38,579 bases of DNA, from the IMG/VR virus record IMGVR_UViG_2563367002_000001; one strand, 5' to 3'. How positions within the stretch are numbered: position 1 is the stretch's first letter; each line of letters opens with the position of its first letter. A model generated the notes under the pieces. It saw only the letters and a list, made by a program, of their open reading frames with translations. It was not told the origin of the DNA and searched no databases. This document shows positions 3,805 to 9,161 of the stretch, piece by piece. The translations under genes and the position numbers were made by a program. This DNA is from a virus. Taxonomy: Duplodnaviria; Heunggongvirae; Uroviricota; Caudoviricetes.

Positions 3805-3893
3805 ATCAATCTCCATTGGTGTGAAGTGGTTTACTGAATTTGGCCACCTGAACAGAGGTGATATGCTCACCTCAGAACAACACAGGTGCCATA

Positions 3894-4196
3894 ATGAAAA
3901 AAAGAAATTTCAGCGCAGAGTTTAAACGCGAATCCGCTCAACTGGTCGTTGACCAGAATTACACCGTGGCAGATGCAGCCAGCGCTATGGATGTCGGCCT
4001 TTCCACAATGACGCGATGGGTGAAACAATTACGTGATGAGCGGCAGGGAAAAACACCAAAAGCCTCCCCTATTACCCCGGAACAAATTGAAATCCGTGAG
4101 CTCAGGAAAAAGCTACAACGTATTGAAATGGAAAATGAAATATTAAAAAAGGCTACCGCGCTCTTGATGTCAGACTCCCTGAACAGTTCTCGATAA
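3894..4196 (+). CDS. insN: IS911-like OrfA (transposition regulator, HTH plus leucine zipper), 100 aa
   Basis: ATG at 3894. The track start at 3858 adds 12 unlikely codons. Sequence recognised as IS911 OrfA from memory. Confidence 0.85.
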
Positions 4197-5041
4197 TCGG
4201 GAAACTCAGGGCGCGTTATCCTGTGGCCACTCTCTGCCATGTGTTCGGGGTCCATCGCAGCAGCTACAAATACTGGAAAAACCGTCCTGAAAAGCCAGAC
4301 GGCAGACGGGCTGTATTACGCAGCCAGGTACTTGAACTGCATGGCATCAGCCACGGCTCTGCCGGAGCAAGAAGCATCGCCACAATGGCAACCCGGAGAG
4401 GCTACCAGATGGGGCACTGGCTTGCTGGCAGACTCATGAAAGAGCTGGGGCTGGTCAGTTGCCAGCAGCCGACTCACCGGTATAAGCGTGGCGGTCATGA
4501 GCACGTTGCTATCCCGAATCATCTTGAGCGACAGTTCGCCGTAACGGAACCAAATCAGGTGTGGTGCGGTGATGTGACCTATATCTGGACGGGTAAGCGC
4601 TGGGCGTACCTCGCCGTTGTTCTCGACCTGTTCGCAAGAAAACCAGTGGGCTGGGCCATGTCGTTCTCGCCGGACAGCAGGCTTACCATGAAAGCACTGG
4701 AAATGGCATGGGAAACCCGTGGTAAGCCCGTCGGGGTGATGTTCCACAGCGATCAAGGCAGTCATTATACGAGCAGGCAGTTCCGGCAGTTACTGTGGAG
4801 ATACCGGATCAGGCAGAGTATGAGTCGGCGTGGAAACTGCTGGGATAACAGCCCAATGGAGCGCTTCTTCAGGAGTCTGAAGAACGAATGGGTGCCGGCG
4901 ACGGGCTATGTAAGCTTCAGCGATGCAGCTCACGCAATAACGGACTATATCGTTGGATATTACAGCGCACTAAGACCGCACGAATATAATGGTGGGTTAC
5001 CACCAAACGAATCGGAAAATCGATACTGGAAAAAACTCTAA
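3894..5041 (+). CDS. IS911-like OrfAB transposase produced by programmed -1 ribosomal frameshift
   Basis: Slippery heptamer A AAA AAG at 4145-4151 in the orfA frame. The -1 frame continues [34 protein letters not shown]... into the 272-aa orfB ORF, which ends at 5041. Confidence 0.8.
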
Positions 5042-5823
5042 CTCGGTGGCCAGTTTTTGTTGACCACTTCAGTATCAATGTTTACAGCCTGACAAGACTC
5101 TTTGAGCACCCAGTCAATAGCGTCTTTCCATGCCTCTGTTTCGACTGGTGGATTTTCACGCTTAACCTGTTCATAGAAGCGCACTGCTTTAACCAGTCCT
5201 TCCGGTACTACTGGTGATGGCTGTTTAGCTTCTAAATCAGCAATTCTGTCAACCACGGCATCGACAGCATCTGAAAAGCCGAACCAGTTGCTCCACTCCG
5301 GCTCATCCCCGGTTGCTGCAAAGTACATATCTGCTAAAGCAGATTCAGCATGGTCACGCTCGTTAATGAGTTGCTCTTCGCTTTTCTCCAGTTCAGCAAT
5401 ACGCTTACCCCCATCCGAGATAACACCTTCGTAATACTCACGCTGCTCGTTGAGTTTTGATTTTGTCTCCTCAAGCTCAACTCTCAGCTTCCCAACAGTA
5501 AGAGCAATATCCTCGTTCTCCTGGTCGCGGCGTTTTATGTATTGCTGGTTTCTTTCCCGTTCATCCAGCAGTGCCAGCACAGTAGCCGGATTGGCTGCGG
5601 CGATGAATTCAGCATTGGCCTGCTGTTCCATTTGGAAATCTTCATCGAAACCGCTTTCTGGATGCGCTCCTTCAATTCTGCAAATGGGAATATATCCAGC
5701 AACTTCACGATGAATTAGCGCATAATCACCATCAAATCGGCTCTCTCCATATTCGAGCGACCACTCACCACACGTTGCTTTTTCTGCCGCTTCACGCAGT
5801 GCCTGATAGTTAATTTCGCTCAC
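5038..5823 (-). CDS. ea22: Ea22-like early protein with coiled-coil region; 3' end interrupted by IS911 (last 11 codons are IS-derived)
   Basis: N-terminal and central segments ([14 protein letters not shown]..., [35 protein letters not shown]...) match lambda Ea22 as recalled. The native frame is cut at the 5071/5072 IS junction. Confidence 0.7.
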
Positions 5824-6041
5824 TTCGAACCTCTCTGTTTACTGATAAGCTCCAGATCCTCCTGGCAACTTGCACAAGTCCGACAACCCTGAACGACCAG
5901 GCGTCTTCGTTCATCTATGGGATCGCCACACTCACAACAATGAGTGGCGGATATAGTCTGGTAGTTCAGACGACGCATTTTTATTGCTGTATTGCGCTGT
6001 AATTCTTCAATTTCTGATGCTGAATCAATGATGTCCGCCAT
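5820..6041 (-). CDS. TraR/DksA-family C4 zinc-finger protein, 73 aa (lambda orf60a/Orf73-like)
   Basis: CxxC...CxxC motif (CCECGDPIDE...CRTCASCQ). Position between Ea22 and exo as in lambda. Start overlaps the neighbouring gene. Confidence 0.75.
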   Translation of the reverse strand: MADIIDSASEIEELQRNTAIKMRRLNYQTISATHCCECGDPIDERRRLVVQGCRTCASCQEDLELISKQRGSK

Positions 6042-6139
6042 CTTTCATTAATCCCTGAATTGTTGGTTAATACGCTTGAGGGTGAATGCGAATAATAAAA
6101 AAGGAGCCTGTAGCTCCCTGATGATTTTGCTTTTCATGT

Positions 6140-6623: not shown

Positions 6624-6774
6624 ACCGCCTCCCGTTTATTATTTATCTTCTCAGCCAGCCGCTGTGCTTTCAGTGGATTTCTGATAACAGAAAGGCCGGG
6701 AAATACCCAGCCTCGCTTTGTAACGGAGTAGACGAAAGTGATCGCGCCTACCCGGATATTATCGTGAGGATGCG

Positions 6775-7455
6775 TCATCGCCATTGCTCCCCAAATACAA
6801 AACTAATTTCAGCCAGTGCCTCGTCCATTTTTTCGATGAACTCCGGCACCATCTCGTCAAAACTCGCCATGTACTTTTCATCCCGCTCAACCACGACATA
6901 ATGCAGTCCTTCACGCTTCATACGCGGGTCATAGTTGGCAAAGTACCAGGCATCTTTTCGCGTCACCCACATGCTGTACTGCACCTGGGCCATGTAAGCC
7001 GATTTTATGGCCTCGAAACCACCGAGCCGGAACTTCATGAAATCCCGGGAGGTAAACGGGCATTTCAGCTCAAGGCCGTTGCCGTCACTGCATAAACCAT
7101 CGGGAGAGCAGGCGGTGCGCATACTTTCGTCGCGATAGATGATCGGGGATTCAGTAACATTCACGCCGGAAGTAAACTCAAACAGGGCTCTGGCGTCGTT
7201 CTCGTACTGTTTTCCCCAAGCCAGCGCCTTAGCGTTAACTTCCGGAGCCACACCGGTGCAAACCTCAGCAAGCAGGGTGTGGAAGTAGGACATTTTCATG
7301 TCAGGCCATTTCTTTCCGGAGCGGGGTTTTGCTATCACGTTGTGAACTTCTGAAGCGGTGATGACGCCGAGCCGTAATTTGTGCCATGCATCATCCCCCT
7401 GTTCGACAGCTCTCACGTCGATCCCGGTACGCTGCAGGATAATGTCCGGTGTCAT
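6775..7455 (-). CDS. exo: Lambda exonuclease (Red-alpha), 226 aa
   Basis: Matches lambda Exo along its length ([42 protein letters not shown]...). Start overlaps the bet stop. Confidence 0.95.
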
Positions 7456-7911
7456 GCTGCCACCTTCTGCTCAGTGGCTTTCTGTTTCAGGAATCCAAGA
7501 GCTTTCACTGCTTCGGCCTGTGTCAGTTCTGACGATGCGCGAATGTCGCGGCGAAATATCTGGGAACAGAGCGGCAATAAGTCGTCATCCCATGTTTTAT
7601 CCAGGGCGATCAGCAGAGTGTTAATCTCCTGCATGGTTTCATCGTTAACCGGAGTGATGTCGCGTTCCGGCTGACGTTCTGCAGTGTATGCGGTATTTTC
7701 GACAATGCGCTCGGCTTCATCCTTGTCATAGATACCAGCAAATCCGAAGGCGAGACGGGCACACTGAATCATGGCTTTATGCCGTAACATCCGTTTGGGA
7801 TGCGACTGCCACGGCCCCGTGATTTCTCTGCCTTCGCGGGTTTTGAATGGTTCGCGGCGGCATTCATCCATCCACTCGGTAACGCAGATCGGATGATTGC
7901 GGTCTTTGCGG
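7452..7911 (-). pseudogene. bet: bet (Red-beta) 3' fragment; 5' part removed at the IS911 junction
   Basis: The frame reads ...RKDRNHPICVTEWMDECRREPFKTREGREITGPWQSHPKRMLRHKAMIQCARLAFGFAGIYDKDEAERI..., the C-terminal half of lambda Bet. It runs without a start codon straight into the IS end at 7911/7912. Confidence 0.9.
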
Positions 7912-7941
7912 TGAAGTGGTCAACAAAAACTGGCCACCGAG

Positions 7942-9089
7942 TTAGAGTTTTTTCCAGTATCGATTTTCCGATTCGTTTGGTGGTAACCCACCATTATATT
8001 CGTGCGGTCTTAGTGCGCTGTAATATCCAACGATATAGTCCGTTATTGCGTGAGCTGCATCGCTGAAGCTTACATAGCCCGTCGCCGGCACCCATTCGTT
8101 CTTCAGACTCCTGAAGAAGCGCTCCATTGGGCTGTTATCCCAGCAGTTTCCACGCCGACTCATACTCTGCCTGATCCGGTATCTCCACAGTAACTGCCGG
8201 AACTGCCTGCTCGTATAATGACTGCCTTGATCGCTGTGGAACATCACCCCGACGGGCTTACCACGGGTTTCCCATGCCATTTCCAGTGCTTTCATGGTAA
8301 GCCTGCTGTCCGGCGAGAACGACATGGCCCAGCCCACTGGTTTTCTTGCGAACAGGTCGAGAACAACGGCGAGGTACGCCCAGCGCTTACCCGTCCAGAT
8401 ATAGGTCACATCACCGCACCACACCTGATTTGGCTCGGTCACGGCGAACTGCCGTTCAAGGTAGTTAGGGATAGCAACATGTTCATGACCACCACGTTTA
8501 TACCGGTAAGTCGGCTGCTGACAGCTGACCAGCCCCAGCTCTTTCATGAGTCTGCCAGCAAGCCAGCGCCCCATCTGGTAGCCTCTCTGGGTTGCCATTG
8601 TGGCGATGCTTCTTGCTCCGGCAGAGCCGTGGCTGATGCCATGCAGTTCAAGTACCTGGCTGCGTAATACAGCCCGTCTGCCGTCTGGCTTTTCAGGACG
8701 GTTTTTCCAGTATTTGTAGCTGCTGCGATGGACCCCGAACACATGGCAGAGAGTGGCCACAGGATAACGCGCCCTGAGTTTCCCGATTATCGAGAACTGT
8801 TCAGGGAGTCTGACATCAAGAGCGCGGTAGCCTTTTTTAATATTTCATTTTCCATTTCAATACGTTGTAGCTTTTTCCTGAGCTCACGGATTTCAATTTG
8901 TTCCGGGGTAATAGGGGAGGCTTTTGGTGTTTTTCCCTGCCGCTCATCACGTAATTGTTTCACCCATCGCGTCATTGTGGAAAGGCCGACATCCATAGCG
9001 CTGGCTGCATCTGCCACGGTGTAATTCTGGTCAACGACCAGTTGAGCGGATTCGCGTTTAAACTCTGCGCTGAAATTTCTTTTTTTCAT
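7942..9089 (-). CDS. IS911-like OrfAB transposase (programmed -1 frameshift), copy 2
   Basis: Same A6G heptamer, mirrored to 8832-8838. The orfB frame ends at 7942. Confidence 0.8.
8787..9089 (-). CDS. insN: IS911-like OrfA, copy 2
   Basis: Protein identical to copy 1 OrfA. Confidence 0.85.
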
Positions 9090-9161
9090 TATGGCACCTG
9101 TGTTGTTCTGAGGTGAGCATATCACCTCTGTTCAGGTGGCCAAATTCAGTAAACCACTTCA

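Follow-up and report, generated by a model that had tools for sequence, protein, structure and literature searches.

IMG/VR record IMGVR_UViG_2563367002_000001 is a stretch of 38,579 nucleotides (nt) of viral DNA (Caudoviricetes), referred to below as the window. It starts at the integrase gene of a lambdoid prophage inserted next to icd, and is collinear, to just before sitD, with the icd prophage of Escherichia coli ATCC 25922 (locus L001), its nearest relative. A segment containing the exonuclease gene exo is bracketed in the window by two copies of an insertion sequence (IS) in inverted orientation, which we assign below to ISEc52. We consider it very probable that the window is a decaying icd prophage of ST73-like type, in which the first copy (copy 1) is a simple insertion and the second (copy 2) is the remnant of a deletion produced during erosion of the prophage by ISEc52.

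The inverted pair and the genes around it

A repeat search of the whole window found one long repeat, an inverted pair with arms at 3819-5071 and 7912-9164 (1253 nt each, 99% complementary, spaced 2840 nt apart), and a repeat of this length cannot have arisen by chance. The first-pass annotation, made from the letters of the sequence, had described two inverted IS911 copies some 2.8 kb apart that map onto each other as x to 12983 - x; the search bears this out, the mirror relation being exact (3819 + 9164 = 12983). The arms are 3 nt longer than the element because GTG precedes the left inverted repeat (IRL) in both copies. The element proper is 1250 bp and, as read in both arms, begins TGAAGTGG and finishes CCACTTCA. 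Copy 1 lies on the plus strand at 3822-5071, with its IRL at 3822-3857, its right inverted repeat (IRR) at 5036-5071, an intact orfA of 100 amino acids at 3894-4196, an A6G frameshift motif at 4145-4151 and an orfB frame open for 300 codons (4139-5038). Copy 2, also 1250 bp, lies on the minus strand at 7912-9161, with orfA running from 9089 to 8787 and orfB from 8760 to 7942; its IRR adjoins a 5'-truncated bet (bet') and its IRL a truncated ninB ('ninB). In the orientation of the IS, the flanks read GTG-IS-GTA for copy 1 and GTG-IS-CCG for copy 2. Between the two copies there are 18 differences in 1250 positions (98.56% identity).

Pfam and NCBIfam profiles identify the genes lying between the copies, all of them on the minus strand. 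They are an Ea22-like gene (5038-5823; PF13935 Ead_Ea22, 138 bits) whose stop codon falls inside the IRR of copy 1, a TraR/DksA-type zinc-finger gene (5820-6041; PF01258, zf-dskA_traR), a hypothetical open reading frame (ORF; 6140-6421, of which the RefSeq version is shorter at 216 nt), an intact DUF1382 gene (6432-6623; PF07131, 106 bits), a DUF1317 gene (6596-6784; PF07026, 130 bits), an intact exo of the lambda exonuclease family (6775-7455; TIGR03033), which is 100% identical to the corresponding gene region of ATCC 25922, and bet' (7452-7911). Of bet, the last 460 nt at the 3' end are left; the start codon and the part encoding the N terminus are deleted, and the profile match covers only positions 124-188 of 188. 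This segment had first been described as exo/orf60a-63/Ea22; the profiles agree as to the exonuclease and Ead_Ea22, but the DUF1382 and DUF1317 genes are only apparently orf60a and orf63, in one order or the other.

On the far side of copy 2, 'ninB (9162-9568, plus strand) lacks its first 34 nt and matches PF05772 NinB with 176 bits over profile positions 11-131. An ORF of 151 amino acids (9113-9568, plus strand) starts at a GTG within the IRL of copy 2 and continues in frame into the truncated ninB, and could yield a fusion product if transcription crosses the IRL outward. The int/xis genes, exo and the late genes look intact. Among the late genes are an OmpC-type porin gene (11973-13115, minus strand) and iss, encoding a serum-survival lipoprotein (approximately 14846-15139, minus strand), and the window ends just before the iron/manganese transporter sitABCD, which follows in ATCC 25922. 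Rfam and tRNA scans of the window gave no matches.

ISEc52 and the history of its two copies

Over its 1250 bp, copy 2 shows 100% identity to copies labelled 'IS3-like element ISEc52 family transposase' in RefSeq, including those of ATCC 25922, THO-006, AHB10 and others (the label is also found in Nissle 1917 and many other E. coli), and is identical to every copy in the related prophages that were compared. No full-length copy identical to copy 1 was found, the best match being 99.4%. The orfB product scores 305 bits against NF033516 (IS3 family transposase, cut-off 160) and orfA matches the N-terminal part of the same profile. Both copies have an orfA of 100 amino acids, the motif AAAAAAG at IS position 324 and an orfB frame (-1) that is open from 318 to 1217. 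IRL and IRR agree at 25 of 36 positions, the first nine being identical (TGAAGTGGT), and the element starts TG... and ends ...CA. Three features that mark the IS3 family are present, namely a transposase of DDE type, overlapping orfA and orfB with A6G, and imperfect TG...CA inverted repeats.

Under the ISfinder naming convention, sequences of the same element share approximately 95% nucleotide identity or more. Our comparison with IS911 was made by proxy, using the copy of EC12 labelled 'IS911 family' in RefSeq in place of X17613, and at 94.1% (copy 2) and 93.1% (copy 1) identity to that proxy neither copy reaches this level. The IRL of the EC12 copy, TGAAGTGGCACACTG, agrees with what we take to be the IRL of IS911 and reads CAC at positions 9-11, where the element in the window has TTT; the IRR in the window agrees with what is presumably the IS911 IRR. 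ISEc52 resembles IS911 in its length of 1250 bp, in its orfA and orfB with an A6G -1 frameshift and in 3-bp target duplications such as those at sister insertions. Judged by identity and by RefSeq labels, the element is ISEc52, a close relative of IS911 and not IS911 proper; the first-pass annotation had the right kind of element (IS3 family, IS911-like) but the wrong name, at ~94% identity to the IS911-labelled copy. By analogy, its mechanism is expected to be the same copy-out/paste-in process as that of IS911, in which a figure-eight is converted to a circle with a 3-4 bp spacer, which then integrates (PMC2909936).

The site of copy 1 is empty in ATCC 25922 and in FDAARGOS_1255 (L003), where it reads CCATTGGTATCAATG; the window has CCATTGGTG, then the IS, then GTATCAATG. 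Compared with these empty sites, copy 1 has the form of a simple insertion that duplicated GTA, the IRL-side copy of which now reads GTG (3819-3821, plus strand) and the IRR-side copy GTA (5072-5074, plus strand). The two flanking triplets therefore agree at two of three bases, while those of copy 2 (GTG/CCG) show no duplication, since that copy sits at a deletion junction. Perfect 3-bp duplications (CAT, ATT, GTC) are seen at sister ISEc52 insertions, among them an independent insertion in THO-006 (L002 5305-6554), which lies 17 bp from the Ea22 site of the window and is flanked by a CAT duplication. The GTG/IRL junction of copy 1 itself recurs in AHB10 and C 691-04A, in the latter case by full-length junction match.

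The native Ea22-like protein ends ...AVNIDTNGD* in the translation from ATCC 25922; in the window its last three codons (NGD) are replaced, after ...AVNIDT, by 10 IS-encoded codons from the IRR. It had been proposed from the window that copy 1 is a simple insertion at the Ea22 3' end with GTG/GTA flanks, and that relatives lacking the IS would show the native end of the gene. The empty sites confirm the former and ATCC 25922 the latter. The accompanying in-silico repair of the gene gave the correct ending (...NIDTNGD), but the native stop does not overlap the start of the next gene as had been supposed, the two being spelled TGAtATG and lying one base apart.

All 18 differences between the copies are confined to IS positions 574-728 (window 4395-4549, plus strand); they exist, as the first-pass annotation had said in noting a few substitutions, but they are not scattered and form a single patch. 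A 261-nt query spanning this patch is 100% identical to an 'IS3 family transposase' pseudogene in complete E. coli genomes. The pseudogene is present in ~3,700 of 5,426 complete genomes (1,335 records with at least 99% identity) and, among the matches listed, usually occurs at one place per genome. It is an IS911-like relic interrupted by IS30 and adjoining fecE (L010 2316-3226, in an ATCC 25922-type genome). When all three sequences are aligned, copy 1 agrees with the fecE relic and differs from copy 2 at 18 of 18 positions; at all other relic-specific positions, the nearest of which are 473 and 926, copy 1 is the same as copy 2. Because copy 1 matches the relic at every one of the differences and the boundaries are clean, the alignment identifies the patch as a gene-conversion tract of 155-452 bp (maximal extent 4295-4746), for which the fecE-linked relic is the assigned donor. 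In this mosaic of 18 nt from an IS911 relic, copy 1 departs from the ISEc52 copies of other E. coli.

Fourteen of the 18 changes are synonymous and four non-synonymous, all within orfB; a dead relic beside fecE is thus seen as the sequence donor to an intact IS, whose OrfB gains four amino-acid changes. The ISEc52 copies of eight related prophages all lack the patch, including the AHB10 copy at the same Ea22 site, and the conversion therefore most likely occurred after insertion, within the lineage of the window.

The window aligns with L001 in blocks on either side of the two copies. Positions 1-3821 correspond to L001 2001-5821, 5072-6451 to 5819-7198, 6446-7912 to 8446-9912, and 9162 onward to 19284 onward, while 3822-5071 (copy 1) and 7912-9161 (copy 2) are absent from L001. 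At about 6449-6451 the window retains an empty site where ATCC 25922 carries its own first copy (IS#1, with a CAT duplication). The IRR of copy 2 adjoins bet at L001 9912 (bet extends over 9452-10237) and its IRL adjoins ninB at L001 19284, so that 9,371 bp of the reference are missing at this point, ~8.1 kb of them phage DNA. The missing segment holds the 5' part of bet, gam, kil, cIII, ral, the second ISEc52 copy of ATCC 25922 (IS#2), sieB, N, cI, cro, cII, O, P, ren and the first 34 nt of ninB. Aligned in this way, copy 2 presents itself as the scar of a bet-to-ninB deletion and not as a simple insertion. The earlier remark that pL is gone is borne out, the alignment to L001 showing the loss of the whole immunity, early-promoter and replication module. 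Because this module is gone, the prophage, to judge from its gene content, is without repressor, pL, pR, N, O/P and origin and is incapable of induction or replication. Two relatives free of the IS and deposited as phage genomes, ev017 and PhiR57_1, are 99.9% identical here and show the ancestral state.

Origin of the arrangement and competing explanations

We propose that ISEc52 would first have inserted in the last codons of the Ea22-like gene, duplicating GTA, and that 155-452 bp of orfB in this copy would afterwards have been overwritten from the IS911 relic at fecE. The 9,371 bp between bet and ninB may have been lost either by recombination between direct ISEc52 copies or by adjacent deletions anchored at an IS end; because no intermediates were found, we infer both of these routes. 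Both are standard, and sister prophages show each of them. FDAARGOS_1255 (L003 10492-11741) and FDAARGOS_1293 (L004 7590-8839) have a common IRR junction at L001 15632 and different IRL-side junctions (L001 13497 and 9342, respectively), which makes them nested one-sided deletions, and C25 has kept the IRL junction of the ATCC 25922 IS#2 and lost DNA on its IRR side. LTC201, on the other hand, is JCM 5491 minus the segment between two direct ISEc52 copies.

Several observations weigh against this history. The bet'-IS-'ninB junction pair occurs in no other sequence among the 5,426 complete E. coli genomes or in the IMG/VR, GTDB genome and JGI metagenome collections, and in none of these does an otherwise intact ninB carry an IS at the window site, whatever its orientation. 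From the sequence taken by itself, an assembler could have merged two direct IS copies into one. A consensus scan of the minus strand from 3500 to 9700 yielded nothing promoter-like, and expression of exo is not supported. The GTG/GTA mismatch at copy 1 has three candidate causes. One is that a nucleotide of the donor flank was carried over in the 3-bp spacer of an IS circle, the IRL flank of copy 2 also being GTG; such circles carry 3-4 bp of the former flank (PMC2909936), and mismatched junction bases are said to be left to host repair (PMC9333248). The others are conversion from copy 2 reaching a few flanking bases, and point mutation. Lastly, simple recombination between the inverted copies of the window cannot yield the junction of IRR with ninB that is found in two relatives.

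These relatives, AHB10 (L005 5319-6580) and C 691-04A, each have a single ISEc52 at this locus. Its left junction (GTG/IRL) is that of copy 1 and its right junction lies at the same ninB nucleotide as that of copy 2, but it is joined to ninB by its IRR, where the window is joined by IRL. On their shared junctions, these arrangements and that of the window are probably related by descent and not by simple recombination. A comparable change affects IS#2 of ATCC 25922 (L001 11898-13147), which is in minus orientation with a perfect ATT duplication. In JCM 5491 (L006 12450-13699) IS#2 has an identical left junction (...CTCTATT) and is in plus orientation, and 496 bp (5' sieB) are missing from its other side; LTC101, whose locus falls short of that of ATCC 25922 by 496 bp, fits the same change. 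No one-step pathway leading from the ATCC 25922 to the JCM 5491 state could be derived from those known for IS911 or IS30.

Because of the IS#2 difference between ATCC 25922 and JCM 5491/LTC101, together with that between the ninB junctions of the window and of AHB10 and C 691-04A, a pathway not described for IS911-like elements suggests itself, in which an inverted ISEc52 pair, or one copy together with a new inverted copy close to it, collapses to one copy, with one outer junction left exact, the IS end switched and the DNA on the other side lost. It is unlikely that the window is a surviving intermediate of such a pathway. There are four candidate causes of the end switch. The same target may have been used independently in both orientations, with subsequent recombination. 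The two states may be the deletion- and inversion-type outcomes of one junction-driven intramolecular reaction, both outcomes having been described as arising from junctions between inverted repeats in copy-out/paste-in elements (PMC9333248). Insertion next to an IS end, a form of targeting summarised in PMC7986276, may have been followed by deletion. Finally, IRL and IRR share their terminal 9 bp, and therefore nicking of the IS tips by transposase, combined with this microhomology, could produce collapse. None of these affects the reading of copy 1 as a simple insertion and copy 2 as a deletion remnant.

Two further variants touch on the fate of such pairs. In LTC201 (L008 6199-7448), a laboratory derivative, the region from exo to ral was lost by recombination of IS#1 with the flipped IS#2; these two copies are direct only after the flip, so that the deletion was reached from an inverted pair in two steps. 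C25 (L012 4156-10595) has three direct ISEc52 copies, a tandemly duplicated IS-Ea22'-TraR-hypothetical unit and a deletion from exo to ral. We considered it as a third case of collapse and rejected it, junction mapping having shown an adjacent deletion and a tandem duplication with all copies direct.

The alternative that survives best is that the pair arose in one step: copy 1 would have transposed into ninB within the same molecule, in an inversion-type event that passed through a transient tandem-dimer junction or was replicative-like, and so have given rise to copy 2. AHB10 and C 691-04A would then be the deletion-type outcome, and the lineage of the window would have been flipped back by recombination and have lost the DNA from bet to ninB by an adjacent deletion. 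Deletion and inversion outcomes at one target would indeed give the pattern seen in these relatives and the window, and in both relatives the left junction agrees exactly with that of copy 1 and the break in ninB falls at the very nucleotide found in the window, with IRR at ninB. However, two independent events would have to have struck the same 3-bp target, and two further steps would be required to reach the window. On inspection the ninB target does not resemble the IS ends; reuse of the site through an IR-like sequence was considered and set aside, as only a GAATTT hexamer is in common and the resemblance is unconvincing. The flanking triplets are also off the expected inverted-duplication pattern, which GTG/GTA and CGG/CAC do not fit with either copy as donor, and replicative or dimer-junction inversion was rejected on this ground as a full explanation. 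We think it improbable, all told, that the pair originated in one step. Nor is the window the inverted isomer of a simpler arrangement, since exchange of its inner flanks would produce GTG/CCG and GTG/GTA, a pattern that is not simpler.

With regard to the function of the pair, RecA-dependent inversion is expected between inverted copies with long uninterrupted identity. Here the patch is flanked by 573 bp and 522 bp of such identity, and in principle the 2.84-kb Ea22-exo-bet' segment can flip by recombination between copies 1 and 2. No inverted isomer was present in the collections searched, where only one sequence has this arrangement. An analogous inverted pair in ATCC 25922-type genomes, with copies 3.45 kb apart, is in one orientation in 13 of 13 assemblies, consensus assemblies being unable to show minority isomers. 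Inversion would be functionally near-silent and leave the region upstream of exo unchanged, because a crossover inside the elements keeps the inner junctions IRR-Ea22 and bet'-IRR. As the first-pass annotation had observed, copy 2 points the same way as bet' and exo, all being on the minus strand, and no terminator-like site was found on that strand between the orfB stop (7942) and exo. Transcription of exo would need read-through from the weak transposase promoter of copy 2, which is possible but unsupported, and the Red system is incomplete in any case because bet is truncated. A hybrid outward promoter at the IRR-bet' junction was rejected, since TTGACC is followed at 17 and 18 nt by hexamers (GCAATC, CAATCA) that agree with TATAAT at only one position in six.

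As a second alternative, the two copies and the DNA between them could be taken for a composite transposon, or for an invertible cassette relevant to exo expression. Two inverted IS copies around a passenger segment recall the layout of Tn10 and Tn5, and the orientation of copy 2 towards bet' and exo, with no terminator-like site between, would suit such a cassette. Unlike Tn10 and Tn5, the unit in the window has no direct duplication (the outer triplets are GTG and CAC), both its outer ends are IRL and it shows no sign of movement. On either side of it the native prophage DNA continues in its native order, and the unit is found nowhere else in the collections. On these grounds a composite transposon was rejected. 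As to a cassette, inversion would keep the inner junctions and change nothing upstream of exo, neither a promoter-like site nor a hybrid promoter between IRR and flank was found, and the Red system lacks an intact bet. We therefore regard this explanation as very unlikely.

Least likely of all is an assembly artefact, in which the true genome would have direct IS copies in bet and in ninB around the immunity region that had been collapsed into one; the bet'-IS-'ninB junction is unique among the 5,426 complete genomes and the three contig collections and copy 2 has no target duplication, but the contig passes through two copies distinguishable by the patch, which suggests long reads, and similar deletions are common in sister prophages from independent complete assemblies.

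ISEc52 and the decay of icd prophages

With copy 1 as an insertion and copy 2 as a deletion remnant, the window resembles known cases of IS-mediated decay of lambdoid prophages, having an IS at a deletion junction, immunity and replication functions lost, and int/xis and the late genes kept. A convergent loss of the early-left, immunity and replication regions is seen in EC12 (L011 1501-2749), where a different lambdoid prophage has the structure TraR'-IS911(-)-'ninB, and many other ISEc52 rearrangement variants occur in icd prophages of ST73 type. The window differs from these in its breakpoints (bet at L001 9912 and ninB at L001 19284), the combination of which with an inverted copy in Ea22 was not seen elsewhere in our searches. 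The processes involved, namely simple insertion, deletion formation and ectopic gene conversion, are already known, so that this is a known element doing known things in the course of ordinary prophage decay. The recurrent end switch or collapse of ISEc52 is the only mildly novel thread.

The practical value of these results is modest: the prophage is permanently defective, the name of the element is corrected, and understanding of IS biology is unchanged. The conversion patch is a clean natural case in which an active copy has taken up sequence from an old, dead IS relic. The early-left region appears as a repeated target of ISEc52, with the Ea22 site of the window, the THO-006 insertion 17 bp away and the IS#1 site of ATCC 25922. 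More generally, ISEc52 has a hot spot in the icd prophage of ST73-type E. coli, that of ATCC 25922 and of its culture-collection stocks included, where insertions, nested deletions, duplications and orientation switches have all occurred, and this matters wherever ST73-type strains are used as genomic references or are typed by prophage content.

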